This document shows, piece after piece, positions 14,907-40,540 of a stretch of 64,000 nucleotides of DNA. Origin of the DNA: an uncultured Planctomycetales bacterium (GTDB lineage Bacteria > Omnitrophota > Gorgyraeia > Zapsychrales > Aceulaceae); assembly GCA_964648665.1 (NCBI GenBank), contig CAZYOA010000004.1, positions 52,894 to 116,893 on the forward strand, written 5' to 3'. Both the position numbers and the translations under genes were made by a program. The notes beneath the pieces are model-generated. The model worked only from the letters and a program-made list of their open reading frames with translations, was not told where the DNA came from and did no database searches. Within the stretch, counting starts at the first letter, position 1. Each line of letters begins with the position of its first letter.

Positions 14907-14930
14907 TTTCTAAAACTTTTATTCTTAAAG

Positions 14931-17440: not shown

Positions 17441-17441
17441 G

Positions 17442-21555: not shown

Positions 21556-21583
21556 ATTAAAAAAGAAAAGTAAAATAATTTTT

Positions 21584-23110: not shown

Positions 23111-23113
23111 GAA

Positions 23114-24104: not shown

Positions 24105-24138
24105 ATTTTAATATTTATTTAAAAAGGGGAGTAAAAAA

Positions 24139-25563: not shown

Positions 25564-25582
25564 ATATAAACAAGGAATTTAA

Positions 25583-27697
25583 GTGGCATTTGATAAAGCA
25601 AAATATTTAGAAGGCTTTAAAGCGGAAGTTAAAGAGCTTTTGCAAGATTTGAGTTTGGGGCTTTTAAAGCTGGAGAAAAAGCCGACAAACAAAAAGCTTC
25701 TTGAAAGCCTTATGCGTAAAGCACATACTATCAAGGGATCAGCGACGATGATGGGATATAAACGTATTGCAGACATATCTCACAACATGGAGGATGGGCT
25801 TGATCGTGCCTTACAAGGAGAGTTAAGTTTAAAGAAGAATCATTTTGATATATTGCTTAAATGTTTAGATGCGATTGATCCTCTTTTGGAGGATAAAGTA
25901 ACATGGCAGGACAAAGGCATTGATGCTTCTTTTGTTGAGAATATTTGTGCTGAGGCGAAGAGCGCTTTTTGTGAAGATGAAATTTCTGAAGAATCTAAAA
26001 AGAAAGAGTCAAAAGAAGAGCTTGCTAAGAAAGAAGAAATTGCTGAAGAAGATTGGAAAGAGGCGAAGACGGAAGATAGTATTCGAATTAATGTTAGCCA
26101 GTTAAATAAACTTGTTAATCTTTCTGGAGAAATGCTTGTTAGTAAAATCCGTTTAAAAGAGCTTGTTTCAGGGCTACAACAGAAAGTGTCAGAAGTTCCT
26201 GATATTGGAGAATCTTTTATTGAAATTAGCAAAGGATTGACTTCCCTCGGAGACACAATGGATTTCTTGACTTCTAATATGCAAGAAGAGGTTATGAAAT
26301 CTCGAATGATTCCAATATCGTATTTATTTAATACTTTTCCGAGAGCAATGCGTGATTTAGCGCGACAAAAAGGAAAAAATATTCAGCTTGAAATTAATGG
26401 ACAAAATACGTATTTGGATAAAACGATTGTTGATCAGGTTAAGGATCCTATCATGCATTTGTTGCGTAATGCCGTCGATCATGGTGTTGAGACGATAGAG
26501 AAAAGACAGGAAAAAGGAAAGCCAGAAGAAAGCAAGATTGCACTTTCAGCTTATCAAGAAGGATCTTTGGTTGTTATTGAAGTTTCTGACGATGGAAATG
26601 GTATCGATGTTGAAAAAGTAAAACAGCATGCTGTTAGCAAAGGGCTTGTTTCCGAAAGTCGTATTAATGATATGATCGATGACCAAGTGTATCAGTTGCT
26701 TTTTTCTCCAGGTTTTAGCACGGCAGAGGAAGTAACAGAAACGTCTGGGCGTGGCGTAGGATTAGACGTTGTTCGTGAAAATATTGTTCAGCTTAAAGGC
26801 ATGATTGAGGTTCAATCAGATCCAGGGAAAGGAACAAGGTTTATTATTAAGCTTCCTTTAACGCTTGCCATCACCGAAAGTCTTTTGGTTGCTGCGGGTA
26901 GCGATATGTTTGCAATTCCCATTGAATCTGTTGTTGAAACAATTCGAATTAAAACTGATGAGATTAAAACGATTGAAGCAAGAGATGTTGTTGTTGTTCG
27001 AGGGCATATTTTGCCTTTGGTTCGTATTTCAGATATTTTTGGTATTTCTCGAAAAGGAATTTTTGAAAAGAATTTTTCGCCTGTTGTTATTGTTCAATCT
27101 GTTGAAAAAAGAATTGCCATTTTAATTGATGATTTGATAGGCCGACAAGAAATTATTACAAAAGCGATTGGCGATCCTTTAAAGAATGTTCGCGATATCG
27201 CAGGAGCCACAATTTTAGGAAATGGAAAAGTTATTCTTATTTTAGATGTTCCATCGATTATTGATTCTGCTGAAGGGGTTATTGTTAAAAGACCAATTGC
27301 TGTGTTAAAGCCAGCTATTCAAGGGAAAAAGAAAAAGACAATTCTTTTAGCCGAGGATGTCTTGAGCACAGCGATGCTTGAAAAAAATATTCTAGAATCT
27401 TCAGGCTTTTCTGTTGTGATTGCACGTGATGGAAAAGAAGCTTTGGACCGCGCCGCTCAAGAAACGTTTGATCTTGTTATTTCTGATGTTTTGATGCCGC
27501 GAATGGATGGATTTGAACTTGCAACAAACTTAAGAAAAAGCAAGACACATAAGGGTGTTCCTATTATCATGGTAACAACGAGAGAAAAAGATGAAGATAA
27601 GCGCCGAGGTTTAGAGGCTGGGGCGAATGCCTATATTTTAAAGAAAGATTTTACATCAGAGATTTTATTAGAAACGATTGAACGATTGGTTGGATAG
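25583..27697 (+). CDS. cheA: CheA histidine kinase fused to C-terminal receiver (CheA-REC hybrid), GTG start
   Basis: It contains an Hpt domain (HTIKGSATMMGY), a dimerisation domain, a HATPase domain (HLLRNAVDHG...GRGVGLDVV) and a CheW-like domain. The C-terminal REC has the full residue set: D (LISDVLMP), T (MVTT) and K (LKKDF). Confidence 0.9.
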   Translation: MAFDKAKYLEGFKAEVKELLQDLSLGLLKLEKKPTNKKLLESLMRKAHTIKGSATMMGYKRIADISHNMEDGLDRALQGELSLKKNHFDILLKCLDAIDPLLEDKVTWQDKGIDASFVENICAEAKSAFCEDEISEESKKKESKEELAKKEEIAEEDWKEAKTEDSIRINVSQLNKLVNLSGEMLVSKIRLKELVSGLQQKVSEVPDIGESFIEISKGLTSLGDTMDFLTSNMQEEVMKSRMIPISYLFNTFPRAMRDLARQKGKNIQLEINGQNTYLDKTIVDQVKDPIMHLLRNAVDHGVETIEKRQEKGKPEESKIALSAYQEGSLVVIEVSDDGNGIDVEKVKQHAVSKGLVSESRINDMIDDQVYQLLFSPGFSTAEEVTETSGRGVGLDVVRENIVQLKGMIEVQSDPGKGTRFIIKLPLTLAITESLLVAAGSDMFAIPIESVVETIRIKTDEIKTIEARDVVVVRGHILPLVRISDIFGISRKGIFEKNFSPVVIVQSVEKRIAILIDDLIGRQEIITKAIGDPLKNVRDIAGATILGNGKVILILDVPSIIDSAEGVIVKRPIAVLKPAIQGKKKKTILLAEDVLSTAMLEKNILESSGFSVVIARDGKEALDRAAQETFDLVISDVLMPRMDGFELATNLRKSKTHKGVPIIMVTTREKDEDKRRGLEAGANAYILKKDFTSEILLETIERLVG

Positions 27698-27714
27698 CTG
27701 ATAAAGGAGTTTGC

Positions 27715-28089
27715 ATGGAAAAGAAAGTTTTAATCATAGAAGATTCAAAGACGGATGCGAATATTTTAGTAGATTTATTGCGAGAAGAAGGGTTGATTGC
27801 GGAAGTTGCCTCGACAGGGAAAAGAGGTCTTGAGCTTGCACAGGAAATGGTTCCAGATCTTGTTCTTCTTGATTTGATGCTTCCTGATATGTCTGGACTG
27901 GATATTTGTTCTGAGATTAAGAGTGATAATCGGCTCAAAAATACTATGGTTGTCGTTGTTAGCAGTCAAGATGATATTAAGGTTATTACGGAGGCTTTTC
28001 ATCGGCATGCCGATGATTATATTTTGAAACCACCTGTGCCAGAATTTTTAATTAAGAAAATAAAACTATATATTGGAAATCGAAATTAA
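27715..28089 (+). CDS. cheY: CheY-like response regulator
   Basis: It has a complete REC (LIIEDSKTD, LLDLMLP, VVSS, LKPP). Confidence 0.8.
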   Translation: MEKKVLIIEDSKTDANILVDLLREEGLIAEVASTGKRGLELAQEMVPDLVLLDLMLPDMSGLDICSEIKSDNRLKNTMVVVVSSQDDIKVITEAFHRHADDYILKPPVPEFLIKKIKLYIGNRN

Positions 28090-28094
28090 TAAAA

Positions 28095-29126
28095 ATGGAT
28101 AATAAAATACGAGTTTTGATTGTTGATGATTCTGCTTTAATGCGAAAAGCATTAGAGGAAATTTTGACATCAGATGAAAATATTGAAGTTGTTGGTTTTG
28201 CAAAAGACGGACAAGAGGCATGTGAAAAAGTACGTGTCTTAAAGCCAAACGTTATTACAATTGATATTAACATGCCGGTTATGAATGGTCTTGATGCGAT
28301 ACAGGCGATTATGTCTGATGTTCCTACGCCTATCATTGTTGTTAGCAGTATGGATGCGAGAATTGTTGCGAAAGCACTCGTTATTGGAGCTATGGATTTT
28401 GTTGTTGTTTCAGATGAAATTGACGAAGTTTCTAAGAGCTTGATTGAAAAAGTTAAGATTTCATCAAATGTGCGACCGTTAAAGCGGATACCTCCTAAAA
28501 TCTTTGAACTAAAAGAAAAAAAGGAAAAAGATTTTAAAAAAGAGTTTTCTAGTGAGAAAGATCTAGATTTTGTTGTTTCAATCGGAGCTTCAACGGGAGG
28601 GCCTCAGGCTCTTCAGGTTGTTCTTTCTTCTTTGCCCGAAAGTTTCAATGCTGGCATATTGATCGTTCAGCATATGTCTGATGGTTTTATTGGAGGCTTG
28701 GCAGATTGGCTTTCGTCTGTAACGCCACACAAAGTTGAACTTGCACGGACAGGTGATATTTTGAAGAATGGAAAAATCTTTTTAGCACCGGATCGATACC
28801 ATTTATGCATTGATGATCATGGCGTTATTCAGTTAAAAAAAGGATCTTTAAGTAAGTCAGGATTTGTTCCTTCTATAGATGAGACGATGGCTTCTGTTGG
28901 CGAAAGTTTTGGCTCGCGTTCAATTGGAGTTATCATGACAGGCATGGGAAGAGACGGGTCAGTTGGGATAGAAACGCTTAAGCGATGCAAAGGAAAAACA
29001 ATTGCTCAAGATGAGGAAACATCTGTTATTTTTGGTATGAATAAAGAAGCCATTGATAAGGGGTGTATTGATTGCATCGTTTCATTGGATAAAATTAGCG
29101 AAACAATCTATAATATAATATCTTAA
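28095..29126 (+). CDS. cheB: protein-glutamate methylesterase CheB (REC + methylesterase)
   Basis: An N-terminal REC (VLIVDDSALMR, TIDINMP) is followed by a CheB catalytic domain (GASTGGPQAL, HMSDGF). Confidence 0.9.
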   Translation: MDNKIRVLIVDDSALMRKALEEILTSDENIEVVGFAKDGQEACEKVRVLKPNVITIDINMPVMNGLDAIQAIMSDVPTPIIVVSSMDARIVAKALVIGAMDFVVVSDEIDEVSKSLIEKVKISSNVRPLKRIPPKIFELKEKKEKDFKKEFSSEKDLDFVVSIGASTGGPQALQVVLSSLPESFNAGILIVQHMSDGFIGGLADWLSSVTPHKVELARTGDILKNGKIFLAPDRYHLCIDDHGVIQLKKGSLSKSGFVPSIDETMASVGESFGSRSIGVIMTGMGRDGSVGIETLKRCKGKTIAQDEETSVIFGMNKEAIDKGCIDCIVSLDKISETIYNIIS

Positions 29127-29144
29127 AAACTTAAGGATAGATTT

Positions 29145-29504
29145 ATGAATAAAAAAGTTTTAATCATCGATGACAGTGCTTTTGTTTTAAATATGCTTAA
29201 AGATATGCTAGAAGAGAAATGTTTTTCTTGCTTGACAGCTGAAGATGGCGAAAAAGGAGTTGCAGTTGCAATTAGCGATAAACCAGATATCGTTATATGC
29301 GATACGCTTTTACCTGGAATAGATGGGTTTGAAGCATGTCGGCAAATAAGAGAGCAGTTAAATTCTGAAACAACAAAAATTATTGTTATGACAGGAACAG
29401 CTGATGCTATTGATGCTGTTAAAGCGCGAGAAGTTGGTGCGGATGATTATTGTGCCAAAACAAGCGATTTTAGTGTTTTAATAAAAGCGATAGAGAAAAT
29501 ATAA
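29145..29504 (+). CDS. stand-alone response regulator receiver
   Basis: It has a complete REC (LIIDDSAF, VICDTLLP, MTGT, AKT). Confidence 0.8.
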   Translation: MNKKVLIIDDSAFVLNMLKDMLEEKCFSCLTAEDGEKGVAVAISDKPDIVICDTLLPGIDGFEACRQIREQLNSETTKIIVMTGTADAIDAVKAREVGADDYCAKTSDFSVLIKAIEKI

Positions 29505-32500
29505 ATGAGCTTTAAAAAGCAATGCCTTAAAACAAAATCGTGTGCAATCTTCTTGATGATCGCGTTTTTAATTATAATTACAGGAAGTATTGTCGTTCCT
29601 AAAATGGCTCAGTATGGTAAAGAAGAAATTGCTCAAGAAGCACAAGCGATTCTTTTTGCTTTAACCAATAGTGTTAATCGTGAAATTGATGAAGTTCATC
29701 GAGTTGCCGTTGCTTTGTCTGGAGATGCTTCATTGAAGAATGCTTTGCAGTCATCTGAATTTGAAGTTTTAATGACAGCAAATAGTGTTCTTGATCGTTA
29801 TGCAGATGCTCTAACAGATACGGTTTGCTATGTTCTTAATACAGAAGGCTTTACAGTTGCATCTTCAAATCATGAAAACATTGATAGTTTTGTGGGAAAA
29901 GACTACAGTTTCCGTCCTTATTTTCAAATGGCAAAGCAAGATGGATATGGTGAATATTTCGCTTATGGTGTAACTTCAAGAAAAAGAGGATTTTATGCAT
30001 CGGCTGTCATTAGAAATGAGTTTAATAGCGTCATAGGAGTCGTTGTTATGAAGCGAGATGTTGATGTTCTTGCTAAGGATTTTTTAGAGTTCCATCCTTG
30101 CTTTTTGATTGATCCTAATGGCATTATTTTTCTTTCAAGCAACCCAAGTTTAGTTTTAAGGTCTTTATGGCCATTAACAGCTGAGCAAGAGAAAGATCTT
30201 ATTGAGAGCAAGCAGTTTGGTGTAGGACCTTTTCAATCTATTCTTTTAGAAAAGATTCAAGTTGACGAAAAAGTTGAATTAGAAAAGAAATCTTTTCTTG
30301 CTTTTCGCCATCCTATTAAAACTAAAGGTTGGTCTTCTCTAATCTTGATGCCATCAAAACGAATAACTTTTTATAAATTCTTCGGAATTATAGTTTTCTT
30401 ATTCCTTATTGTTTTAGTAACCGTGGCTTTTATTATTGTATCTATTGCAAATAGCTCTGCTGAGAAATCGAGAGGGTTTGTAGCTATTGTTGAGTCTTCA
30501 TCAGATGCCATTGTTGGAAAGACGGTTGAAGGAAATATTATAAGCTGGAATAAAGGCGCTGAAAGAATGTATGGGTATTCAGCTAAAGAAATTATAGGAA
30601 AGTCAATTGCAATTTTAGCTAAAGATGATCAAAAACAAGAAATTGTAAATATTTTAAAAAGAATTAAGTTGGGTGAGAGGATTGAAAACTTTGAAACAGA
30701 GCGGATTACTAAAGATGGACGCAAGATTGTCGTATCTTTAAACATTTCGCCTATTCGAGACTCTAAGGGCAATGTTGGGGAGGTGGCAACAATTGCGCGT
30801 GATGTTACTCAAGAGAAAAAAGCTCAAGAAGTTTTAAAAGAAACACAGGAAGCTTTAAAAGAAAAAGCCTGGGGTTTAGAAAAAACAAATGATGCGATTA
30901 AAGCACTTTATTCGGATCTTTCGGATAAGACTCAGAAGCTGGAGGAATCACGAGAAGAGATTGCTGCAGCCAAAGATTCCGCTGAACGAGTTTTTGATCT
31001 TAGCCCGAGTGCAATTTTTACAGTCAATAAAGACAAGATTATTACAAAATGGAATAAAAAAGCAGAAGATACAACAGGATATTCTTCTGAAGAAATTATA
31101 GGTAAAGATTGTTCTATTTTTGCGGATTACCCGTGTAAAGAAATTTGTGGACTTTTTTCTGATCAGATCGAAAAACCAGTTTCGTCTAGAGAATGCCGCA
31201 TTCGAAGAAAAGATGGAGAGTTTAGAACTATTGCAAAGAATGCGGATCTGCTTTACGATTTACATGGAAATGTTTCTGGAGGCATAGAAAGTTTCGAAGA
31301 TATTACAGATCGCAAGAAAGCTCAAGAAAGTCTAGCTGAGAGTGAAGAAAAATATCGTCATTTAGTTCAGAATGCAAATAGTATTATCTTGCGAATCAAT
31401 GATCAAGGAGAAATTACATTTTTCAATGAGTATGCGGAGGAATTTTTCGGATTTACTCAAGAAGAAATTGTTGGAAAACATGTTATTGGAACTGTTTTAC
31501 CTGAGCAGGACGGGGTGGGTCACGATTTAAATGAAGTGGTTTCACGTATCTTGCAAGATCCTAAGAAATATGCGAATAATGAGAATGAAAATATTTGTAA
31601 AGATGGTCGACGAGTTTGGGTTCGATGGTCAAATAAAGTTGTTTTAGATTCAAGAAAAGATGGAGGAAGCGAAATTTTATGCGTGGGAACAGATATCACA
31701 GAGATTAAAGAATTTCAAAATGAACTTATAAAGCTTTCTCGTGCAGTTGAGCAAAGTCCGAGTGTCGTTGTTATTACAGATTTAGAGGGTAATATTGAAT
31801 ATGTAAATCCAAAATTCTGCGAGTTAACGGGATATTCTTTTGAAGAAGCGGCTGGCCAGAATCCTCGAATTTTAAAATCTGGTGACAAGCCTGAAGAATT
31901 TTATAAGGATATGTGGGATACGATTCAATCTGGAAAAGAATGGCGGGGAGAATTTTGCAACAAAAAGAAAAATGGTGAAGAGTATTGGGAGCTTGCTTTG
32001 ATATCGTCAATACGAAATGATCAAGGAGAAGCAACGCATTTCTTGGCTGTTAAAGAAGATGTTACGGCGCGTAAAGCTGCTGAAGATAAAGCTAGAGATG
32101 CTATTCGGCTTAAGAGTGAATTTATTTCTGTTGTTTCTCATGAATTGCGTACTCCTCTGACGGCAATTAAAGAAGGTATTTCTATTGTTGCTGATGGTGT
32201 GACTGGCGAGGTTAATCCTGATCAAGCAGAATTTTTATCTGTTGCGAAGAGAAATGTTGAAAGATTGTCTCGGTTAATTAATGATGTTTTAGATTTCCAG
32301 AAACTCGATGCTCAGCAGATGACATTTGATTTTGAATTACAAAATATTAATTTGTTAGTTCAAGAAGTTGGCAAAACAATGGAGAAGATTGCGCAAAAAG
32401 ATGGATGTGAATTAAAAACAGAATTAGATGAGACCATCCCAGAAATTAATATGGATCATGATCGTGTTACTCAAGTTGTAACAAATTTAGTTAATAATGC

Positions 32501-32813
32501 GATTAAATATGCGGCGGGTAAGCCGATAACGATTAAAACATCACATCAAGGCAATACTATCCAAGTTTCTGTTATTGATCAAGGTGAAGGCATTAAAGAA
32601 GATGATTTTGAGAAGCTTTTTCAAACATTTAGCCAATTGAAAAAAGGTAAAGAAAGAAAAACAGGAAGCACGGGACTTGGTCTTGCGATTTCAAAGAAAA
32701 TTGTCGAAAGCCATGGTGGAAAGATTTGGGTTGAGTCTGAATATGGAAAGGGAAGTTCTTTTTCTTTTCTTATTCCTGTTGAAGAGAGAAGAAAGAGTGA
32801 AAGCGAGACATAA
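29505..32813 (+). CDS. sensor histidine kinase: periplasmic Cache-like domain, TM, four PAS/PAC modules, HisKA + HATPase
   Basis: At 1102 aa it has a Cache-like segment (residues about 40-290) flanked by TM helices. Repeated PAS signatures are present. The H-box is [11 protein letters not shown] and the ATPase has N/G1/G2 boxes ([25 protein letters not shown]). It has no receiver domain. Confidence 0.85.
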
Positions 32814-32824
32814 AGGAGAGGGTT

Positions 32825-33193
32825 ATGGCAAAGAAAATTTTAGTTGTTGATGATGAGCCGGATATATTAAAAGTTGTTATTTTTCGTCTTCAAAAAGAGG
32901 GGTACGAGGTCAAAACAGCTATTGATGGGCAGATGGCGATAGATATGCTCTCTGAAGAAAGGCCTGATATGGTTCTTTTAGATATTACGCTTCCGCTTCT
33001 TAATGGATTTGAAGTGTGCAAGAGAATAAAATCAGATGAAAATCTTAAAGATATTCCGGTTATGTTTTTAACAGCATCAACAGCGTCTGAAGGATTTAAA
33101 GAAAGAGCTGAGAGTGTTGGCTCCCAAGGCTACATGTTTAAACCATTTGATTATGAGTTATTATTAGAAAAAGTAAAAAAATTAATAAATTAG
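32825..33193 (+). CDS. stand-alone response regulator receiver
   Basis: It has a complete REC (LVVDDEPD, LLDITLP, LTAS, FKPF). Confidence 0.8.
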   Translation: MAKKILVVDDEPDILKVVIFRLQKEGYEVKTAIDGQMAIDMLSEERPDMVLLDITLPLLNGFEVCKRIKSDENLKDIPVMFLTASTASEGFKERAESVGSQGYMFKPFDYELLLEKVKKLIN

Positions 33194-33202
33194 GAGAATA
33201 AG

Positions 33203-33562
33203 ATGGAAAAGAAAATTTTAGTTGTTGAGGATGAGCTAGATATTCAAAAAATTTTAAAAGCTAATTTAGAAGCAGCTGGGTATGTAACGTTTGTTGCAGA
33301 TAATGCTAAGCAAGGACTAGAGCTTATTAAAAAAGAGCAGCCGGTAGCGGTTATTCTTGATGTCATGCTTCCAGATGAAAACGGTTTTGATGTTTGTCGA
33401 AAAATTAAGAATGACAATGATGAAATAAAGGTATTAATTTACACCGGAAAGCTTGAAGCTGTTGATGCTAGACGAGCTAGAGAAGCAGGGGCAGACGATT
33501 TTACGGTTAAAACAGTTGATTTTAAATATATCTTAGAATCGATTGAGAAATTAACTTCATAA
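33203..33562 (+). CDS. stand-alone response regulator receiver
   Basis: It has a REC fold with an ED acidic pair (VVEDELD), then ILDVMLP, YTGK and VKT. Confidence 0.8.
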   Translation: MEKKILVVEDELDIQKILKANLEAAGYVTFVADNAKQGLELIKKEQPVAVILDVMLPDENGFDVCRKIKNDNDEIKVLIYTGKLEAVDARRAREAGADDFTVKTVDFKYILESIEKLTS

Positions 33563-33581: not shown

Positions 33582-34175
33582 ATGACCTCTGTTTTTTTTG
33601 AAAAGCAGGGGTTATTTATTTTTAGGTCAAAAATGTTTAAAATGCGCATATATCTGTACTTAATTCTTTTGGTTCTTCCGTTATTAATAGGGTGTGATTT
33701 TATTTATGGGATTATTCAAAAGCAAGCAGCACATGAAAAGGCGTTGATTGGCGAGATTGTTCCTTTTGTGCAGAATGAAAAAGTTGAAGAAATTCAAAAA
33801 CTTTTGAAGGTTAATGGTTGTTCCCCTGGAAAAATTGATGGAAAAATGGGTCAAAAAGTGAGAGAAGCGATTGCTAGTTTTCAGGAGGATCGCGGACTAG
33901 ACGTTAATCGGTATATTGACAAGCCGACTTGGGAAGAATTAAATTTATATACAGATTTAGGGCTTGTTTTTGATGGAGAAATTGATATTGCTTTTATTCA
34001 GCAAATTCTTACGAGAGAGGGATTTGATCCTGGCAAGATAGATGGAAAGCTTGGATCTAAAACAATTGAAGCTATTAAGAGGTTTCAAGATCAGAATGGT
34101 TTAAAGCCAGATGGAAGAATAGGGCCAAATACGTTGTCTATCTTTGTTGACTATATCATGACTTCAGAGTACTAG
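33582..34175 (+). CDS. lipoprotein with two PG_binding_1 (peptidoglycan-binding) repeats
   Basis: An internal Met (MFKMRIY...LLIGC) gives a lipobox, so the true start is probably about 33636. Two repeats of about 60 aa (GCSPGKIDGKMGQKVREAIASFQEDRGL and GFDPGKIDGKLGSKTIEAIKRFQDQNGL) match the PG_binding_1 pattern. Confidence 0.6.
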   Translation: MTSVFFEKQGLFIFRSKMFKMRIYLYLILLVLPLLIGCDFIYGIIQKQAAHEKALIGEIVPFVQNEKVEEIQKLLKVNGCSPGKIDGKMGQKVREAIASFQEDRGLDVNRYIDKPTWEELNLYTDLGLVFDGEIDIAFIQQILTREGFDPGKIDGKLGSKTIEAIKRFQDQNGLKPDGRIGPNTLSIFVDYIMTSEY

Positions 34176-34197: not shown

Positions 34198-34226
34198 TTG
34201 CCAATAGACGACAAATCACGTATAAT
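34198..34226 (+). promoter_or_regulatory. near-consensus sigma70 promoter for the pgmB-otsB-GH65 operon (TTGCCA - 17 nt - TATAAT)
   Basis: The -35 is ttgcca (34198-34203) and the -10 is tataat (34221-34226). It lies 78 nt upstream of the ATG at 34304. Confidence 0.5.
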
Positions 34227-34303
34227 ATTTAATGCAAATCTTACCTATTGATTTATAGTCATAAGCGTTAGAAAAATAAAGGTTTATAAAAAAGGAATGC
34301 ATA

Positions 34304-35062
34304 ATGAAGAGCTATGATGCAGTTATTTTTGATTTAGATGGTGTTATTACAAAAACAGCGTTAGTTCATGCCGCTTCTTGGAAAGAAATGTTTGATGGAT
34401 ATCTTAAAGCTAGAGAGCTTCGAGATGGTGAGCCGTTCAAGGAATTTACTCATGAAAAAGACTATCTTCCTTTTGTTGATGGTAAGCCTAGATATAAAGG
34501 TGTTCAAAGTTTTTTAGAATCCCGTAATATTGACATTCCTTTTGGTGATCCTTCAGATTTACCTGATAGTGAAACCGTTTGTGGACTTGGAAATAAGAAA
34601 AATGTAAAGTTTCAAGCTATTTTAGAGCAAAAAGGAGCTGAAGTTTTTGAGCCAGCCGTTGCATTAATTAAAGATTTAAAAGCTAATGGTGTTCATGTTG
34701 CTGTGGCGTCTTCTAGCAAGAATTGCCAGCTTATTTTACAAAAAACTGGATTAGAAGAGCTTTTTGAAAGTAGAGTTGATGGCGTTGTTTCTGCAGAGCT
34801 TGGGCTTAAGGGCAAGCCGGAAGGGGATATTTTTGTAACGGCTTGTAAAAATATTGGATGTATGCCTCAAAGAGGTGTTGTTGTTGAAGATGCTGTTTCG
34901 GGAGTTCAAGCTGGAAAAAATGGAGATTTTGCTCTTGTTTTGGGTGTGGCTCGTGAAGGAAACGAGCAAGAGCTTAAAAGTAACGGGGCAGATGTTGTTG
35001 TTGCTAATTTCAAAGAAGTTAACGCGCAAAGGATTGATCAATGGCTTCAGGAAAAAAGTTAA
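34304..35062 (+). CDS. pgmB: beta-phosphoglucomutase family HAD hydrolase
   Basis: It has HAD motif I (VIFDLDGVITKT), motif II (ASSS), and a K...VEDAVSGVQAGKNG motif III/IV. It is adjacent to a GH65 phosphorylase. Confidence 0.75.
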   Translation: MKSYDAVIFDLDGVITKTALVHAASWKEMFDGYLKARELRDGEPFKEFTHEKDYLPFVDGKPRYKGVQSFLESRNIDIPFGDPSDLPDSETVCGLGNKKNVKFQAILEQKGAEVFEPAVALIKDLKANGVHVAVASSSKNCQLILQKTGLEELFESRVDGVVSAELGLKGKPEGDIFVTACKNIGCMPQRGVVVEDAVSGVQAGKNGDFALVLGVAREGNEQELKSNGADVVVANFKEVNAQRIDQWLQEKS

Positions 35063-35835
35063 AGAATTTCTTTGAATATTTAGATGAAATAAAAGGCCGA
35101 TTAAATGGAAAAACATTAGTTGTTTTTCTGGATTATGATGGAACGCTTACGCCTATTGTTGCAACGCCAGATTTAGCAATTATTTCTGATGAAATGCGTT
35201 CAACGGTTGAAAATCTTTCTCAAAAAATAAAAGTAGCGATTGTTTCAGGAAGAGCAACTGATGATGTTCGCTCAAAGGTGAAGATTTCAGGTATTTTTTA
35301 TGCTGGAAGTCATGGTTTTGAAATTAATTATCCATCGGGCGAGGTCAAAATTAATGATGAAGCGCAGCAGATCCGTCCTATTGTTGATGAAATTCAATTG
35401 AAATTGACTGAACGCGTTAAGCATATTGAAGGCGCTTTAATTGAAAATGTTAAATATACGGTATCTTGCCATTATCGACTTGTTAAGGATGAAGATTTTG
35501 AAGAATTTGAAAAAGAAGTTGATAGTGTTTTGTTGGAATATCCGCAGCTTCGAAAAACAAACGGAAAAAAAGTTTTTGAAATTCGTCCAAAGATAGATTG
35601 GCATAAAGGAAAAGCTGTTAATTGGATTATGAATATTTTTGGACAAGAAGTTCAGAATATTTTGCCGGTTTATATTGGCGATGACACAACAGACGAAGAT
35701 GCTTTTAAAGCATTAAAAGAAAAGGGATTCGGTGTCTTGGTCGCGACAGCTGATAGAGAAACTGAAGCCGAATATATTGTTAAAGACACAGAGGAAGTCA
35801 AAAAAGTTTTACAAACTTTTATTGATCTTAATTGA
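35041..35835 (+). CDS. otsB: trehalose-6-phosphate phosphatase (HAD-IIB, OtsB-like)
   Basis: The motifs LVVFLDYDGTLTPIV, IVSGR and YIGDDTTDEDAF are present. It overlaps pgmB by 22 nt and the GH65 gene by 4 nt. Confidence 0.75.
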   Translation: MASGKKLKNFFEYLDEIKGRLNGKTLVVFLDYDGTLTPIVATPDLAIISDEMRSTVENLSQKIKVAIVSGRATDDVRSKVKISGIFYAGSHGFEINYPSGEVKINDEAQQIRPIVDEIQLKLTERVKHIEGALIENVKYTVSCHYRLVKDEDFEEFEKEVDSVLLEYPQLRKTNGKKVFEIRPKIDWHKGKAVNWIMNIFGQEVQNILPVYIGDDTTDEDAFKALKEKGFGVLVATADRETEAEYIVKDTEEVKKVLQTFIDLN

Positions 35836-38276
35836 TAATGAATACTTGGAAACTTGTATATGATCGATTTGTTCCAGAAGAAGAATCTCTAAGAGAATCT
35901 CTTTGTACTCTTGGAAATGGATATTTTGGAACGCGGGGTGCTGCTCCAGAAACATCAGTCACGAAGGTGCATTATCCAGGTACGTATATCGCTGGTGTTT
36001 ATAATGAACTGATTACAGATGTTGCAGGGCGAAAAGTTGCAAATGAAGATTTTGTTAATTGTCCTAATTGGCTAATGCTTAATTTTTGCATAGAGAATGG
36101 TCCGTGGTTTGATCGTCTGAAGGTAAAAATTCTTTCTTGGAAAATGACTCTCAATATGCGAAAAGGTGTTTTATCGAGACGTGTTCGATGGCAAGATGAA
36201 AAAGGACGGATTACTGTTATGGACAATCACCGCATTGTGAGCATGGCCAACCCTCATTGTGCTGCGCTCAAGTGTACAATAACTCCAGAAAATTATAGTG
36301 GAAAAATAACATTTCGAAGTGGAATTGATGGACAAATCATTAACGCTGGAGTTGAACGGTATAAGCAGCTTAATTCAAAACATCTTGAACCAAAAGCTTT
36401 AGGATGTTTTGGACAAGATGGACTTTTCTTACAGATGCAGACTAATCAATCAAAGATTGAAATCACTCAAGCTGTTCGAACGCTTGTATTTTCTGATAAC
36501 CAAAGAATCTATCCGAAGATGCGTGTATTGACGCATGGGCGGGAACGCACAGTTAAAGAGTTTTCTGTCGATGTTGAAAAAGGAAAACGGTATGTTGTCG
36601 ATAAAGTGATGGGTCTTTATACCTCTCGCGATCAAGGTGTTGTTGATACTTGTGCAGCTGCGCAGGAAAGCGTTTCGACAATAGAAAGCTTCGATAGTCT
36701 TTATAAGCCTCATGCGGCACGTTGGCGTGCTTTATGGAAAAAGTTTGATATTGAAATTAGCGGTGATGATTTTAGTCAGCGTGCTCTTCGTTTGCATGCA
36801 TTTCATTCTCTTCAGGTTGCTTCAACATATAATGAAGAAATTGATGCGGGACTTCCAGCTCGGGGTCTTCATGGTGAGGCTTATCGAGGCCATATTTTTT
36901 GGGATGAACTCTATGTTTATCCTTTTTATACGTTAAAAGCACCTGAAATTACACGTGCTCTTTTGATGTATCGCTATCGTCGTTTATCTGCGGCAAAAGA
37001 ATATGCAAGAGAAAGTGGATACAGAGGGGCAATGTATCCTTGGCAAAGTGCTTCAGCAGGAAACGAAACAACGCAGGTTGTTCATTTAAATCCGATGTCA
37101 GGTAAGTGGGGACCGGATCATAGCTGTCTTCAAAGACATGTTTCAATTGCGATTGCGTACAATGTTTGGACATATTATTACACTTCAGGGGATAGCGATT
37201 TTCTTGCACGATATGGAGCAGAAATGATTTTAGAAATTTCTCATTTCTGGTCAAGTGCTACAAAATTTGATGAAGAAACTAAGAGATATTATATTGAAGG
37301 TGTAATGGGGCCAGATGAATTTCATGAAAAGCTTCCAGGGTCAGAGAAATCAGGTGTTAAAAATAATGCGTATACAAATATTTTGGTTGTTTGGATCTTA
37401 GAAAAAGCTTTATTTTTGCTTGATTCCATGAGCGAGGAAGAAAGACAGGCTTTGCTTTTAAAAATCGAAGTTTCTGGCGAAGAAGTTGATCGTTGGCGAG
37501 ATATCACAACAAAAATGACAATCCTGATGAGCAAAGACGGCATCATTCATCAGTTTGAAGGATATATGGATCTTAAAGAATTAGATTGGGACGAGTATCG
37601 TGCTAAATATGACAATATTCATCGCATTGATCGCATTCTAAAAGCAGAAGGATCTTCTCCTGATAATTATAAGGTTGCTAAGCAGGCGGATACTTTGATG
37701 ACATTTTATCTTTTAAATGACGAAGAGGTTCGTTCAATTTTTAAAAAGTTAGGATATCCCGTCTCTAAAGATATGTTTAGAAAAAATTATGATTATTATT
37801 CTAAACGTACATCGCATGGCTCAACATTGAGTCGTGTTGTTCATGCTTATTTAGCCGAGCGCGTTGATTATGAAGATTTAGCTATGGAACATTTTCAAGC
37901 TGCTCTTAAAAGTGATATTTATGATACTCAAGGAGGCACAACGCAAGAAGGTATTCATTGTGGTGTTATGGCCGGCACCATTGATTTAGTAATGCGTTGT
38001 TTTGCGGGATTAGGCATTCAAGATAATCAAATTTCGCTTAATCCAAAACTTCCAGAAAAATGGACTAAAATGAAGTTTTCTGTTCGCTATAGAGATATTT
38101 GGTTTAATATTGAAATTACAACAGAAAAAGTTATTGTTAAAGCAGAGCCTTTAAATAAGATTGCTTTACAGCGTCCAACAGAAATGTTTATTTCAATTAA
38201 TAATAATCGGTACAAAGTTACACCGAATGAAAAAACGGTCATTTCTCTAAATAAATGGCTTCCAATCAAATTTTAA
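35832..38276 (+). CDS. glycoside hydrolase family 65 disaccharide phosphorylase (trehalose / trehalose-6-phosphate / kojibiose phosphorylase type)
   Basis: At 814 aa the N-terminus WKLVYDRFVPEEESLRESLCTLGNGYFGTRGA is the GH65 N-terminal domain signature. A central (alpha/alpha)6 region and a C-terminal beta-sandwich follow. Confidence 0.85.
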   Translation: MIMNTWKLVYDRFVPEEESLRESLCTLGNGYFGTRGAAPETSVTKVHYPGTYIAGVYNELITDVAGRKVANEDFVNCPNWLMLNFCIENGPWFDRLKVKILSWKMTLNMRKGVLSRRVRWQDEKGRITVMDNHRIVSMANPHCAALKCTITPENYSGKITFRSGIDGQIINAGVERYKQLNSKHLEPKALGCFGQDGLFLQMQTNQSKIEITQAVRTLVFSDNQRIYPKMRVLTHGRERTVKEFSVDVEKGKRYVVDKVMGLYTSRDQGVVDTCAAAQESVSTIESFDSLYKPHAARWRALWKKFDIEISGDDFSQRALRLHAFHSLQVASTYNEEIDAGLPARGLHGEAYRGHIFWDELYVYPFYTLKAPEITRALLMYRYRRLSAAKEYARESGYRGAMYPWQSASAGNETTQVVHLNPMSGKWGPDHSCLQRHVSIAIAYNVWTYYYTSGDSDFLARYGAEMILEISHFWSSATKFDEETKRYYIEGVMGPDEFHEKLPGSEKSGVKNNAYTNILVVWILEKALFLLDSMSEEERQALLLKIEVSGEEVDRWRDITTKMTILMSKDGIIHQFEGYMDLKELDWDEYRAKYDNIHRIDRILKAEGSSPDNYKVAKQADTLMTFYLLNDEEVRSIFKKLGYPVSKDMFRKNYDYYSKRTSHGSTLSRVVHAYLAERVDYEDLAMEHFQAALKSDIYDTQGGTTQEGIHCGVMAGTIDLVMRCFAGLGIQDNQISLNPKLPEKWTKMKFSVRYRDIWFNIEITTEKVIVKAEPLNKIALQRPTEMFISINNNRYKVTPNEKTVISLNKWLPIKF

Positions 38277-39418
38277 ACCCCATTTATATTGTCGACGGTA
38301 TTCGTACTCCAGTCGGAAGTACGTTCAAAAGCCTTAAATCTTTTTCTGCGGCAGAGCTTGCCAGTTTTGTTATCGACGAGATGTGTTGTCGCTATTCAAA
38401 TATAAAAAAAGAAGTTGATCAGGTTATTTTGGGTCATACAGTTTCAGCGGGCACAGGCCAAAGTATGGCGCGACATGCTGTTTCTTTGTCTGAGCTAGAT
38501 ATTGAAACACCTGCTTTTTCTGTTAATAGCGTCTGCGGCTCTGGCTTACAATCTGTTATTTTAGGTGCTCAAGCGATATTAAGTAATCAAGCAAATTTAA
38601 TTCTAGCTGGTGGTTCAGAGAGCGCATCTCATAATCCTCAAATCATAAAAAGAGGAAACGATTCTGTTGAAAGTCTTCTTGTTGATGGTTTGTCTTGTGT
38701 GATGTCTGATGCTCACATGGGAGAGCTTGCAGAAAATTTAGCAAAAGAGTTTAAGATTTCACGAGAAGAGCAAGATAAGCTTTCTTTTGAAAGTCATCAA
38801 AAAGCTTACAAAGCTCAAGAACAAGGAAAATTTGATAAAGAAATTGTTTCGGTTAAAAAAGATAATGGTGAACTTTTTTCGCGAGATGAGCGCGTACGAA
38901 AGAATATAAGTTTTGAAAGACTGCAGATGCTTCCAAGTTCGTTTGAAGAAAACGGAAGCATCACGCCTGGCAACGCTTCTTCGCCGGCAGATGCGGCTGG
39001 AATTGTTTTATTGGCGAATGATCAAGCTATTAAGAAATACAACTTTAAGCCTAAGGCGAAAATTCTAGGTTACGCAACCGTGGCGCTTGATCCTAAGCAA
39101 TCTTTTTTAGGGGCTATAAAAGCTACCGAGAAATGTCTTAAGAAAAGTAATCTTAAAAAAGAAGAAATTGATCTTTTTGAAATAGGAGAATCATTTGCTT
39201 CTCAAGCTGTTTTGACAAAAAAAGAATTGAATATTGAAGATAAGAAATTCAATATCTTTGGAGGAGATATTGCGATCGGTCATCCTTTAGGGTCAACGGC
39301 GACGAGAATTTTGATAACTCTTTTACATGCTCTTGAAGATCAAAATAAGAAAATTGGCTTGATGAGTATTTGTTTTGGTAGTGGCGGAGGGATTGCCATG
39401 GCTATTGAGCGATTATAA
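38255..39418 (+). CDS. acetyl-CoA C-acetyltransferase (thiolase)
   Basis: It has the N-terminal Cys motif VNSVCGSGLQS and the C-terminal CFGSGGGIAMAIE. It overlaps the GH65 stop. Confidence 0.85.
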   Translation: MASNQILNPIYIVDGIRTPVGSTFKSLKSFSAAELASFVIDEMCCRYSNIKKEVDQVILGHTVSAGTGQSMARHAVSLSELDIETPAFSVNSVCGSGLQSVILGAQAILSNQANLILAGGSESASHNPQIIKRGNDSVESLLVDGLSCVMSDAHMGELAENLAKEFKISREEQDKLSFESHQKAYKAQEQGKFDKEIVSVKKDNGELFSRDERVRKNISFERLQMLPSSFEENGSITPGNASSPADAAGIVLLANDQAIKKYNFKPKAKILGYATVALDPKQSFLGAIKATEKCLKKSNLKKEEIDLFEIGESFASQAVLTKKELNIEDKKFNIFGGDIAIGHPLGSTATRILITLLHALEDQNKKIGLMSICFGSGGGIAMAIERL

Positions 39419-40540
39419 AAAGTTTTTTACCATTTCAGCGATTGCTAAGCAAGATGTTAAGCCTGGCGATTCAATTCCAAGCAAGTTAATAAAACCTTCC
39501 AAGTTGTTTTCTTTTTCATTAACAATAACAAAATCTCTAAATTTATCTTCTGGTGATTGAAGTTTGGCACGAATTCCGCATGTGTCAGGAGTCAGGTCAT
39601 CATTGGAAAGATTTTTAAGAAAACGCGAAACAGATGAAATAAATTTCTGTTTATCTTTTTCATTAATAGTGTAATCAATGTTGTCAGTGAAGGTTGCGTC
39701 TGGGCCAAGGCGAAGACCGCCTGCAAGATCAGGCGTGATATGAATACCAAGGTCTGTCGAGCTTGGAGGCGGATAAACAAGATGCTGGATATTAAATTTC
39801 TTTGGATTTGCAATACGAAAATATTGCCCCTTACTGTAATAAATTTTATATTTATTTTCTTCGATATTGATTCCAGCCATAGCGGCAACTTGATCAGCAT
39901 AAAATCCAGACGCATTAATGATGATATTTGTTTCAAAGCAAAAAGATTCTCCCGTTGGTTCCTTGACGGTAATCTTGTATCCTGAAGATTGTTTCTTGAT
40001 ATCAATAACTTTTATATTGTAAGCAAATTCAACTTTATTTTGTTTTGATTGTTCATAAAAGAAATGCATTAGTTGATGAGAATCAATGATGCCGGTGTCT
40101 GGAGAAAAAAGTGCATTTTGGGCTTTTATGCTTGGTTCTAGAGAGGCGAGCTCGTTATTTTCTAGAAAACGAAGATTTTCAACACCATTTTCAAAAGCGT
40201 TATCTTTGATACCTTGAATTGTTTTCTCTTCTTCGTTGTTGCAGGCAATTAATATTTTTCCAATTTTTTGATGAGGAATATTGTGTTCTTGGCAAAGGTC
40301 ATAAAGCATCTGTTTTCCCTTGATACAAAGTTTTGCTTTTAGAGAATCAGGTGGATAGTAGATTCCAGCGTGAATAACTTCAGAATTACGAGAAGATGTT
40401 TCGCGCCCAAAAGAATCGTGCTGTTCAATAACAAGGATATCTTTATGATTTTTTGATAAAGCAAAACTTGTAGCAAGTCCGCAAACGCCAGCTCCGATAA
40501 TTGTAATGTTAGCTTTATCCATAATGTCATTATTGTACAC
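39413..40540 (-). CDS. FAD-dependent oxidoreductase, L-2-hydroxyglutarate oxidase/dehydrogenase (LhgO)-like
   Basis: It has an N-terminal Rossmann motif (ITIIGAGVCGLATSFAL) and the SSRNSEVIHAGIYY motif typical of LhgO/YgaF. The likely true start is the internal MDKAN. It converges tail-to-tail with the thiolase, overlapping by 6 nt. Confidence 0.75.
   Translation of the reverse strand: MYNNDIMDKANITIIGAGVCGLATSFALSKNHKDILVIEQHDSFGRETSSRNSEVIHAGIYYPPDSLKAKLCIKGKQMLYDLCQEHNIPHQKIGKILIACNNEEEKTIQGIKDNAFENGVENLRFLENNELASLEPSIKAQNALFSPDTGIIDSHQLMHFFYEQSKQNKVEFAYNIKVIDIKKQSSGYKITVKEPTGESFCFETNIIINASGFYADQVAAMAGINIEENKYKIYYSKGQYFRIANPKKFNIQHLVYPPPSSTDLGIHITPDLAGGLRLGPDATFTDNIDYTINEKDKQKFISSVSRFLKNLSNDDLTPDTCGIRAKLQSPEDKFRDFVIVNEKENNLEGFINLLGIESPGLTSCLAIAEMVKNFL

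Follow-up and report, generated by a model that had tools for sequence, protein, structure and literature searches.

A conserved pgmB-otsB-GH65 gene module in an uncultured Omnitrophota bacterium and its possible role in trehalose synthesis without OtsA

Introduction

How might trehalose, a protective sugar, be formed at a locus that encodes a trehalose-6-phosphate (T6P) phosphatase (T6PP) beside a disaccharide phosphorylase? In the canonical OtsA/OtsB (TPS/TPP) pathway, T6P is supplied by a GT20 glycosyltransferase from UDP-, ADP- or GDP-glucose and is then converted to trehalose by a HAD-IIB phosphatase of the TIGR00685 family. The locus analyzed here, which lies in a 64,000-nucleotide stretch of DNA (the window), appears to share this last step, whereas its T6P is proposed to come from a GH65 phosphorylase acting on β-glucose-1-phosphate (β-G1P), with no nucleotide sugar involved.

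The two reversible enzymes of the proposed route are also encoded together in Lactococcus lactis. The trehalose catabolic pathway of that organism, reportedly described by Andersson in 2001, leads from a PTS through a T6P phosphorylase (TrePP) to the β-phosphoglucomutase (β-PGM) PgmB; trehalose is PTS-fed, flux is toward glucose-6-phosphate (G6P), and there is no T6PP. This is the only T6P phosphorylase to have been studied physiologically, and its catabolic role counts against synthesis. Carvalho et al. are said to have engineered L. lactis in 2011 with trePP, pgmB and otsB for trehalose production, the phosphatase being added to reverse net flux toward trehalose. These are exactly the three activities predicted in the window, but the engineered set is a man-made mix of genes from different organisms, whereas the operon in the window, behind its promoter, is natural, as are the fusions in its relatives. 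No natural role for the gene trio was described in the literature searched.

Results and Discussion

Four tightly packed open reading frames were confirmed on the + strand, behind a σ70-type promoter (34198..34226, + strand; −35 box TTGCCA at 34198-34203, 17-nt spacer, −10 box TATAAT at 34221-34226) that matches the consensus at 11 of 12 positions. Promoter-like matches are no commoner in the region as a whole than in shuffles (21, against 24.2 ± 5.5), so the consensus match alone is weak evidence. Across five Omnitrophota genomes, however, little or no change was seen in either hexamer or in the 17-nt spacing, in contrast to the divergent spacer sequence and flanks, and this conservation extends even to the one genome of the five whose GH65 protein is only 66% identical. 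It supports the promoter proposed in an earlier note on this DNA. No Rfam element was found in the 77-nt leader.

The first gene is pgmB-like (34304..35062, + strand; 252 aa) and has an AAGGAA sequence 8 nt upstream. It is followed by an otsB-type gene (35041..35835, + strand; 264 aa) whose start lies inside the pgmB 3′ end, so the previously noted 22-nt overlap is genuine. By contrast, the 4-nt overlap reported between otsB and the GH65 gene (35838..38276, + strand; 812 aa from the conserved ATG) arose from the start codon that was chosen. Translation probably does not begin at the upstream TTG at 35832: in all relatives, and according to all gene callers, the gene starts at the ATG at 35838, within ATG-AAT-ACN-TGG-AAA (MNTWK), which leaves a 2-nt gap and still represents tight packing. 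The fourth gene (38255..39418, + strand; 387 aa), encoding an acetyl-CoA C-acyltransferase (thiolase), starts inside the GH65 3′ end with an overlap of 22 nt, and is convergent with an FAD oxidoreductase gene (39413-40540, − strand). Eight independent contigs on which the same protein is encoded all showed this arrangement, and the four gene identities assigned earlier were borne out by matches to the HAD, Trehalose_PPase, GH65 N/m/C and Thiolase N/C domains.

The phosphatase matched PF02358 (E 6e-54) and scored 172.6 bits against the TIGR00685 equivalog (cut-off, 68), compared with only 23 bits against the mannosyl-3-phosphoglycerate phosphatase model (cut-off, 244), and thus does not group with HAD-IIB enzymes other than T6PP. 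Its best PDB match was the trehalose-phosphate phosphatase 5gvx (E 1e-38, 33.8% identity). It retains the HAD motifs DYDGT, SGR, K and GDDxTDE, as do 36 of 36 GH65-linked homologues, triple fusions included.

In addition to HAD and HAD_2 Pfam matches, the pgmB product scored 149.9 bits against the NCBIfam subfamily TIGR02009, just under the cut-off of 153.35, and 109 bits against the equivalog TIGR01990, well under the cut-off of 189; these two shortfalls are a point against synthesis. It is 45.8% identical (E 6e-58) to PDB entry 8h5s, which carries D27/D29 as does Mycobacterium tuberculosis Rv3400 and is almost certainly that protein, and it shares 58% identity with the N-terminal domain of a fusion protein from Caldithrix abyssi. 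Across 70 homologues the motifs DLDGV, DGKPRYxGV, SSSKN, GKP and EDA are retained. Rv3400, verified as a β-PGM both in vitro and in vivo, is of the same subtype, with an enlarged cap, whereas the L. lactis β-PGM is of the short, 221-aa type and scores only about 73 bits against the window protein. In M. tuberculosis, whose Rv3400/Rv3401 are, with OtsB1, among the nearest known systems, Rv3400 serves trehalose catabolism, and the catabolic role of this homologue likewise weighs against a synthetic direction.

The GH65 protein shares 48% identity (791 bits, 793 residues) with the C. abyssi T6P phosphorylase APF18594.1 (GH65 subgroup 22, EC 2.4.1.216; De Beul et al. 2021), which has been demonstrated experimentally to form T6P from β-G1P and G6P (PMC8537180). 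Its specificity positions read DQAQDE against DQGQDE in the T6P phosphorylase, so that five of the six are the same and the sixth is a conservative Gly-to-Ala change. The two proteins also have in common the general acid (E494 in the window protein) and the phosphate site (K, S-T and H; K615, S662-T663 and H707), and the hydrolase-base position holds Q rather than E. All 201 members examined of the family to which the window protein belongs have D-Q-[A/G/S]-Q-D-E together with these phosphorylase hallmarks. The fingerprints of kojibiose (EEAP), maltose (KV[MF]NES) and trehalose (TRIGPP) phosphorylases are all absent, and the protein does not fall with the maltose or kojibiose enzymes, the latter having EEAPxx at the specificity positions. 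This pattern suggests that its substrate specificity is of the T6P phosphorylase type. Judged from sequence, then, the identification of three enzyme families with intact catalytic residues, packed as if co-transcribed behind a conserved promoter, is supported.

The nearest characterized T6P phosphorylase is nevertheless only 48% identical, the Ala substitution occurs in 119 of the 201 family members, and identity to the kojibiose phosphorylase CsKP (35.7%) is about the same as that to PDB entry 9lb6 (36.4%). GH65 enzymes are known to change specificity over modest sequence distances and are often promiscuous in their acceptors. These points would fit a reading in which a related phosphorylated α-glucoside other than T6P is the substrate of both the GH65 enzyme and the HAD phosphatase; the acceptor might be a polyol phosphate or a different sugar phosphate, and the product a compatible solute other than trehalose. 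We consider this very unlikely, given that the phosphatase independently scores far over the cut-off of a T6P-specific equivalog, that the fingerprint change is conservative and the rival fingerprints are missing, and that trehalose genes (TreS-maltokinase, TreZ, OtsA and OtsA-OtsB) neighbour loci of the family.

If the assignments are correct, transcription from the promoter at 34198 would yield a three-enzyme module leading from G6P to trehalose without a nucleotide sugar. The Rv3400-type β-PGM would equilibrate G6P with β-G1P, the GH65 enzyme working in reverse phosphorolysis would join β-G1P to a second G6P to give T6P and Pi, and the OtsB-type phosphatase would hydrolyze T6P irreversibly to trehalose, thereby pulling both reversible steps forward. 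The net reaction would be 2 G6P + H2O → trehalose + 2 Pi, sparing the UTP or ATP needed for NDP-glucose in the OtsA route. With moderate confidence, we regard this conversion, independent of OtsA and NDP-glucose, as the best reading of the locus. It matches the engineered Lactococcus pathway and, in nature, is undescribed in the literature searched. Phosphorylase-catalyzed T6P formation has been reported to be strongly favourable, with up to 541 mM T6P obtained in vitro, and the phosphatase moves T6P toward trehalose only, which argues for net flux in that direction. Neither otsA, treS or treYZ nor any GT20 gene was found within the 64-kb window, and the genus description of Ca. Aceula, from MAGs 92% complete, includes glycogen synthesis and lists no canonical trehalose synthesis; the route may be independent of OtsA.

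We examined 81 related loci from at least 15 phyla, archaea included. β-PGM is fused or adjacent to GH65 in about 70 of them, and an OtsB-type T6PP in 35 (6 separate triads, 22 bPGM-T6PP fusions, 5 triple fusions and 2 partial cases); four further loci have a different, Brugia-type T6PP family in the same position. The gene trio is therefore widespread in uncultured microbes, often as a single fused protein, and the fused versions anticipated earlier exist, as double fusions of two types and triple fusions of one, besides separate genes. The five triple fusions (stop-to-stop ORFs of 1334-1402 residues) fall in the family of the window GH65 and have the HAD-T6PP-GH65 architecture that we take to be that of M. 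tuberculosis OtsB1 (Rv2006). OtsB1, a 1327-aa protein of unknown function with T6PP homology, has been reported to lack T6PP activity, and its deletion gave no phenotype; the reported inactivity of this triple fusion speaks against synthesis.

In a derived sister clade, the phosphatase is replaced by a P-loop kinase (25 of 25 loci), accompanied by sugar importers (GPH/MFS in 10 loci, SSF and TonB in C. abyssi). C. abyssi itself has a bPGM-GH65 fusion, physically linking GH65 to an Rv3400-type β-PGM as the window's three separate genes do, with a P-loop kinase after it, an SSF symporter and two TonB-dependent receptors before it, and no phosphatase. This is an uptake and catabolic context, whereas in the window the T6PP is present and the importer and kinase are absent. 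The sister clade looks catabolic, although the contrast between kinase and phosphatase amounts to roughly one evolutionary switch rather than many independent events.

These loci bear on a second explanation, in which T6P supplied by OtsA, a PTS or a kinase, and toxic on accumulation, would be removed by the module, either by phosphorolysis to G6P and β-G1P, with β-PGM returning β-G1P to G6P and energy being conserved, or by hydrolysis to trehalose. The net role would be catabolism or buffering of trehalose and T6P, as in L. lactis and M. tuberculosis. Reviews present TrePP only as a T6P-degrading route, consistent with its catabolic use together with PgmB in L. lactis. Deletion of Rv3400 increased β-G1P 30-fold and impaired growth on trehalose, indicating that flux in M. 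tuberculosis runs from disaccharide through β-G1P to G6P. OtsA or OtsA-OtsB adjoins the module in 7 of the 81 loci, the bPGM-GH65 pair of the sister species Ca. Aceula meridiana has no T6PP beside it, and the fusions fit disposal too, since T6P or its products are common to the three domains. Against this, no PTS, sugar importer or kinase is present at the window locus or at the other T6PP-type loci, where kinases and MFS importers occur in 0 of 35 and an SSF match in 1 of 35; the published Ca. Aceula reconstruction identified no trehalose-synthesis pathway to supply T6P; a trehalose-releasing phosphatase would be counter-productive in catabolism unless trehalose were re-phosphorylated; and the catabolic-looking loci, with importers and kinase, have lost the phosphatase. 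T6P disposal is therefore a reading we take seriously but think unlikely, and the comparative loci and the genus description together favour the biosynthetic over the catabolic role, in line with the earlier note, which had argued against simple catabolism.

Trehalose-biosynthetic genes adjoin some T6PP-type loci, namely TreZ (L009) and an OtsA without its own phosphatase domain (L079 and L080), and this setting favours synthesis. Where OtsA is adjacent, however, it could supply T6P, with GH65 then acting as a drain, which would count against synthesis. In Ca. Aceula meridiana, bPGM-GH65-thiolase is kept and the T6PP gene is cleanly missing, so the phosphatase is dispensable to the bPGM-GH65 pair, at least at this locus; this too is an observation on the side opposed to synthesis.

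The thiolase scored 382.6 bits against TIGR01930 (cut-off, 240), and its catalytic Cys/His/Cys motifs (NSVCGSG, GHPLG and CFGSGGG) are intact. It follows GH65 in the window and in three other Ca. Aceula-group genomes (four of four examined), its overlap is of the translational-coupling type, and in two related genomes almost every base of the junction is conserved. It is probably co-transcribed. It might be a functional fourth member linking trehalose to acetyl-CoA/acetoacetyl-CoA, for instance in a stress response or through carbon storage under shared regulation, but we judge this improbable. No thiolase lies beside the 66%-identical Omnitrophota GH65 homologue (L004) or in any of the 80 genome-scan loci, and the surroundings lack hbd, crt, phaB/C and HMG-CoA genes. 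The adjacency within Ca. Aceula is itself little informative because the whole 20-kb neighbourhood is syntenic. Thus, of the earlier suggestion that the thiolase belongs to the operon, the overlap stands and functional membership is unsupported: we treat the thiolase as a passenger specific to the genus Ca. Aceula rather than as a conserved member of the module.

Gene organization of the locus

Four ORFs on the + strand, their domain calls all confirmed by Pfam and NCBIfam, make up the locus: a HAD-IA protein of 252 aa, here called bPGM for β-phosphoglucomutase (34304–35062), a Trehalose_PPase protein of 264 aa (35041–35835), a GH65 protein (35832/35838–38276, with a conserved start at 35838) and a thiolase (38255–39418). 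A protein with two PG_binding_1 domains is encoded upstream (33582–34175), and the unit is closed by a gene for an FAD-dependent oxidoreductase that is convergent to the four ORFs (39413–40540). Inspection of the sequence bore out the 22-nt overlaps at both the pgmB/otsB and the GH65/thiolase junctions. The 4-nt overlap that the earlier note had placed between otsB and GH65 depends on a TTG codon at 35832, but all relatives and all gene calls start at ATG 35838 (MNTWK), so that these two genes are instead separated by a 2-nt gap. Both 22-nt junctions (35040–35062 and 38254–38276) have AATGGCTTC in common, the downstream proteins at both begin with Met-Ala-Ser, and both overlaps terminate with TAA; the shared sequence may be a coincidence or a common coupling signal.

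A promoter-like site (TTGCCA-17-TATAAT, + strand, 34198–34226) matches the consensus at 11 of 12 positions. However, 21 promoter-like matches were found in this A+T-rich region, compared with 24.2 ± 5.5 in shuffled sequence, and the match is therefore by itself weak proof of a promoter. More informative is the intergenic region as aligned across five genomes, including one whose GH65 is only 66% identical: the −35 and −10 hexamers and their spacing were retained while the remainder had diverged. On the + strand of the predicted pgmB–otsB–GH65(–thl) operon, terminator-like sites occurred only within coding sequence. An Rfam search of the 77-nt leader found no element, and a riboswitch or other RNA element there was discarded; the only Rfam matches in the window, a 6S RNA and two tRNAs, lie at other places. 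Eight metagenomic contigs carry an identical GH65 protein, flanked each time by the same genes, and its closest named relatives are those of Candidatus Aceula lacicola (89%) and Ca. A. meridiana (77%), both of the phylum Omnitrophota.

The thiolase scored 382.6 bits on TIGR01930 (cut-off 240.55) and carries the Cys/His/Cys motifs NSVCGSG, GHPLG and CFGSGGG; the product of 38255–39418 is a bona fide thiolase (acetyl-CoA C-acyltransferase). Its start overlaps GH65 in the manner of translational coupling, and two relatives have this junction with hardly a base changed. GH65 is followed by the thiolase in all four genomes of the Ca. Aceula group, among which the entire 20-kb neighbourhood is syntenic, but no thiolase lies beside GH65 in the next-closest genome (the Omnitrophota locus L004) or in the best 80 of at least 597 scanned loci. 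Nearby there are no genes that could partner it in a butyrate, PHB or mevalonate pathway. Considering that it has neither conserved partner genes nor adjacency to GH65 beyond one genus, a functional role in the module was rejected, and the thiolase is best regarded as a passenger specific to this lineage.

Assignment of the GH65 enzyme

The N-terminal, central catalytic and C-terminal domains of a GH65 enzyme were all recognized (PF03636, E 6e-73; PF03632, 2e-125; PF03633, 3e-12). In a PDB search the protein matched best 9lb6, annotated as "Trehalose-6-phosphate hydrolase" and presumably the TrePP structure of Feng et al. 2025, with 545 bits, as compared with 415 for the kojibiose phosphorylase CsKP (414 in the pairwise comparison), 250 for glucosylglycerol phosphorylase and 242 for maltose phosphorylase. 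Although 9lb6 seemed decisive, pairwise BLAST gave 36.4% identity to 9lb6 and 35.7% to CsKP, and PDB similarity was abandoned as a classifier. Since the two are nearly equal in identity, a characterized enzyme from Caldithrix abyssi was used as the reference. With a Calditrichota homologue as the query, a search found the protein P0148, which a cluster look-up identified as C. abyssi APF18594.1. This enzyme makes trehalose-6-phosphate (T6P) from β-glucose-1-phosphate (β-G1P) and glucose-6-phosphate (G6P) (De Beul et al. 2021, PMC8537180). Its alignment with the GH65 of the window spans 793 residues at 48% identity (791 bits).

De Beul et al. (2021, PMC8537180) described six correlated specificity positions in GH65 (CsKP 64, 392, 394, 402, 416 and 585), with the fingerprints DQGQDE for T6P phosphorylase, EEAPxx for kojibiose, KV[MF]NES for maltose and TRIGPP for trehalose phosphorylase. 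Aligned through CsKP, the window's enzyme reads DQAQDE, identical to the first of these at five of six positions, and none of the kojibiose, maltose or trehalose phosphorylase motifs is present at these positions. The single difference, Gly to Ala at position 394, is conservative. Among 201 GH65 relatives, Ala occupies this position in 119 and Gly in more than 60, and the pattern D-Q-[A/G/S]-Q-D-E holds with rare exceptions. GH65 phosphorylases are marked by a general acid Glu, by Lys, His and a Ser pair around the phosphate, and by the lack of a general-base Glu. The corresponding residues here are E494 as general acid and K615, H707 and S662-T663 at the phosphate site, while Q698 stands where GH65 hydrolases hold the general-base Glu; the second phosphate-site Ser is Thr not only in this protein but also in 9lb6 and in 191 of the 201 relatives. 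Taken together, the fingerprint, the identity to APF18594.1 and the phosphorylase hallmarks indicate, at the level of sequence, that the enzyme is of the T6P-phosphorylase type (EC 2.4.1.216; subgroup 22 of De Beul et al.), a possibility that the earlier note had raised, and that it does not group with the maltose or kojibiose phosphorylases. Its predicted reaction is T6P + Pi ↔ β-G1P + G6P. Two homologues of about 65–67% identity, P0027 and P0054, are named "Not trehalose-6-phosphate phosphatase" in the database, a name that probably goes back to fusion proteins like OtsB1 having confused earlier annotation.

Assignment of the HAD enzymes

The 264-aa protein scored 172.6 bits on the T6P phosphatase (T6PP) equivalog TIGR00685 (cut-off 68.05), as against 23.4 bits on the mannosyl-3-phosphoglycerate phosphatase model TIGR02461 (cut-off 244), which sets it apart from the latter family and agrees with its original reading as a phosphatase of T6P. 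Its best solved relative is the trehalose-phosphate phosphatase 5gvx (E 1e-38, 33.8% identity), and HAD motifs I–IV are intact (FLDYDGTLT, VSGR, HKGKA and GDDTTDEDAF). It is thus identified, from its family scores and motifs, as a T6P phosphatase (OtsB, TIGR00685, HAD-IIB) that is predicted to hydrolyze T6P.

The 252-aa bPGM fell below the NCBIfam cut-offs for the TIGR01990 equivalog (109.4 against 189.4) and the TIGR02009 subfamily (149.9 against 153.35), showing that it is not of the classical lactococcal type. It contains a DLDGV motif, shares 58% identity with the N-terminal domain of the fusion protein in C. abyssi, and matched PDB entry 8h5s, "Beta-phosphoglucomutase", with 45.8% identity (E 6e-58). 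The Asp27/Asp29 pair of 8h5s corresponds to the D29A catalytic mutant of Mycobacterium tuberculosis Rv3400, and we infer that 8h5s is Rv3400. The 252-aa protein is assigned as a β-phosphoglucomutase (EC 5.4.2.6) of the Rv3400 subtype. Rv3400 itself has been confirmed as a β-PGM in vivo (2025 preprint).

Distribution and fusion of the module

A scan with one genome per species returned at least 597 loci with relatives. The best 80 of these were analyzed, and every ORF in these 80 and in L004, 81 loci in all, was compared with the proteins of the window; the counts that follow refer to this set. The most frequent arrangement was a bPGM–GH65 fusion lacking an OtsB-type phosphatase (32 loci), followed by a bPGM–T6PP fusion with GH65 downstream (22 loci). 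The window's own arrangement of three unfused genes was found at six loci, a triple bPGM–T6PP–GH65 fusion with stop-to-stop ORFs of 1334–1402 residues at five, separate bPGM and GH65 genes with no T6PP at four, and T6PP followed by GH65, with bPGM not scored, at two. GH65 stood alone at the remaining 10 loci, at five of which the upstream sequence was truncated and at five of which neither partner was found upstream. That fused multidomain versions exist, as the earlier note had stated, is thus borne out by both double and triple fusions. The T6PP catalytic motifs were kept in all 36 GH65-linked copies, including those in triple fusions. The bacterial hosts include members of the Omnitrophota, Planctomycetota, Desulfobacterota, Nitrospirota, Binatia, Actinomycetota, Gemmatimonadota, Bacteroidota, Chloroflexota and Chlorobiota, and the archaeal hosts include the ethane-oxidizing Ca. 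Ethanoperedens and Ca. Argoarchaeum. At the locus of the sister species Ca. A. meridiana (L087, 5242–9585), bPGM, GH65 and thiolase genes are present without a T6PP gene, the gap between bPGM and GH65 is 6 nt, and the promoter hexamers are also conserved upstream.

Phosphatase-type and kinase-type modules

Module types were defined by clustering of neighbouring ORFs with family annotation. The bPGM–GH65 fusion was followed by a small P-loop kinase of the uridine-kinase/PRK superfamily in 24 of the 32 loci of that class, whereas none of the 35 loci with an OtsB-type phosphatase carried such a kinase (81 loci: the best 80 of at least 597, and L004). A GPH/MFS sugar symporter accompanied the kinase type in 10 loci. 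In C. abyssi, two TonB-dependent receptor genes and one for an SSF symporter precede the fusion gene, the kinase gene comes after it, and this locus looks catabolic. The kinase, of about 215 aa (Udk/PanK/PRK superfamily), is found in 25 of the 81 related loci, for example at 11165–11803 of the C. abyssi locus L088 and at 12288–12932 of L023; GPH/MFS or SSF sugar symporters and TonB receptors often accompany it, a T6P phosphatase never does. Its best matches are NCBIfam udk at 41 bits, far under the cut-off, and a PDB entry at E 2e-3. It is a candidate trehalose kinase of an ATP-sparing catabolic route (trehalose + ATP → T6P → 2 G6P).

Four fusion loci without the kinase (L014 at 4867–6093; L017, L024 and L039) encode a member of another T6PP family, with PF18572 (T6PP_N) and PF21141 (T6PP_C), in the position that the OtsB-type phosphatase occupies in other loci; it looks as if the OtsB type had been displaced there by this distinct family. 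In a neighbour-joining tree the kinase type formed one derived clade with the alternative-phosphatase type as its sister, and loci with the OtsB-type phosphatase filled the remainder, both deep branches included. Comparisons and tree were made without Ca. Kuenenia CAJ75349.1 and the mycobacterial Rv2006 and Rv3401. Because the OtsB-type loci extend across the tree, the link between GH65 and a phosphatase is broad and probably ancestral. The tree also shows essentially one switch, so that the kinase counts (25 against 0) are not independent and were given no statistic.

Further trehalose-biosynthetic genes adjoin some phosphatase-type modules: a TreZ gene lies directly downstream in L009 (12533–14362; 735 bits), an OtsA without a phosphatase domain of its own is encoded in L079 (12429–13931) and L080 (11115–12662), and a TreS–maltokinase in L079 (4831–8286; 920 bits). 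This suggests larger trehalose/α-glucan gene clusters in some lineages. The neighbour cluster labelled "TreS-Mak" proved to be a heterogeneous set of GH13 proteins (TreS–maltokinase, TreZ, GlgB and amylase-like), and TreS is not claimed for all of its 15 loci. Where OtsA adjoins the module, GH65 could act at some loci as a drain for T6P instead of a source.

A possible route to trehalose and its direction

In the biosynthetic reading, β-PGM and a reversible phosphorylase would connect T6P with the G6P pool, the phosphatase would move T6P only towards trehalose, and trehalose could return to the pathway only via a kinase or a PTS. Co-expression of the three enzymes would then result in 2 G6P + H2O → trehalose + 2 Pi. 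The β-PGM equilibrium lies at roughly 1:28 towards G6P, an unfavourable position that T6P formation and the irreversible phosphatase would offset. Phosphorylase-based T6P formation is reported to be strongly favourable in vitro, with a quoted Keq of 760 and up to 541 mM (2026 paper), and the same trio, trePP, pgmB and otsB, is given as the gene set of Carvalho et al. 2011 for engineered L. lactis. No GT20 (OtsA), TreS, TreY/Z or TreT was found within the 64-kb window. For the genus Ca. Aceula, the published description, from MAGs that are 92% complete, names the synthesis of glycogen but, in contrast to several sister genera, not that of trehalose, which fits a lineage that lacks OtsA and uses an unrecognized trehalose route; the supplementary tables of that paper held no searchable trehalose or GH65 entries.

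Several points argue against this direction. Rv3400 serves trehalose catabolism in M. tuberculosis, where its deletion causes β-G1P to accumulate, the sole physiologically studied T6P phosphorylase is catabolic, and M. tuberculosis OtsB1 reportedly lacks phosphatase activity. Moreover, Ca. A. meridiana keeps bPGM, GH65 and thiolase with the phosphatase gene cleanly missing, and the phosphatase-type loci beside OtsA, where GH65 could drain T6P, weigh on the same side. For these reasons we consider the biosynthetic direction, given the enzyme assignments, only fairly probable, while we have high confidence in the assignments themselves.

In a wider reading, the T6P-phosphorylase family would be biosynthetic in its main and ancestral role and, with an Rv3400-type β-PGM and T6PP, would constitute a sixth, nucleotide-sugar-independent trehalose route (2 G6P → trehalose + 2 Pi), widespread in energy-limited uncultured bacteria and archaea. 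It would also account for the function of OtsB1, and the derived clade would have exchanged the phosphatase for a previously unrecognized trehalose kinase and would use the other two enzymes in reverse, for ATP-sparing catabolism. As a whole we advance this reading tentatively, its chances lying slightly below even. The triple fusions match OtsB1 (Rv2006, 1327 aa) in size, and the domain order of OtsB1 is presumably HAD–T6PP–GH65. A 2024 review still called its function unknown.

The three enzyme families, the reaction sequence, its artificial combination and a fused gene in mycobacteria are already known. Reviews count five or six trehalose routes and place T6P phosphorylase under degradation only, and a 2026 paper termed phosphorylase-based T6P synthesis "new-to-nature"; in the searchable literature we did not find the trio described as a conserved natural module, frequently fused, for which a biosynthetic role had been proposed. 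If true, the reading would provide fermentative, energy-starved microbes with an energy-cheaper trehalose pathway and would change pathway calls in metagenome reconstructions, correcting the inference for many uncultured lineages, among them Ca. Aceula, which had been scored negative for trehalose synthesis. It would also offer a concrete, testable hypothesis for the long-unexplained OtsB1 and ready-made fused biocatalysts for the production of trehalose or T6P.

Other features of the window

Alpha-glucan genes at 12478–18938, 15 kb upstream of the trehalose module, encode a GlgB-like protein (CBM48, α-amylase and C-terminal domains), an 816-aa protein with GH57 and DUF3536, and a GH77 4-α-glucanotransferase. 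They are followed by a chemotaxis/two-component block (19035–33562) with CheR-TPR, two CheW, an MCP, CheA, CheB, several single-domain receivers and a 1102-aa dCache-PAS sensor, inside which lies a PilB/MshE-type T2SSE ATPase with a C-terminal receiver domain (19402–21555). No Pfam matches were obtained for the ORFs at 167–1045, 8341–10041 and 61946–63541. The 6S RNA (Rfam RF00013, 72 bits; 3173–3326) lies directly upstream of a 5-formyltetrahydrofolate cyclo-ligase gene (3513–4076), which we take to be the ssrS–ygfA pairing of other bacteria, here in an Omnitrophota genome. The + strand carries 45 of the 48 ORFs of at least 90 aa, and the GC skew is positive in all 2-kb bins from 1 to 64000 (0.12–0.34).
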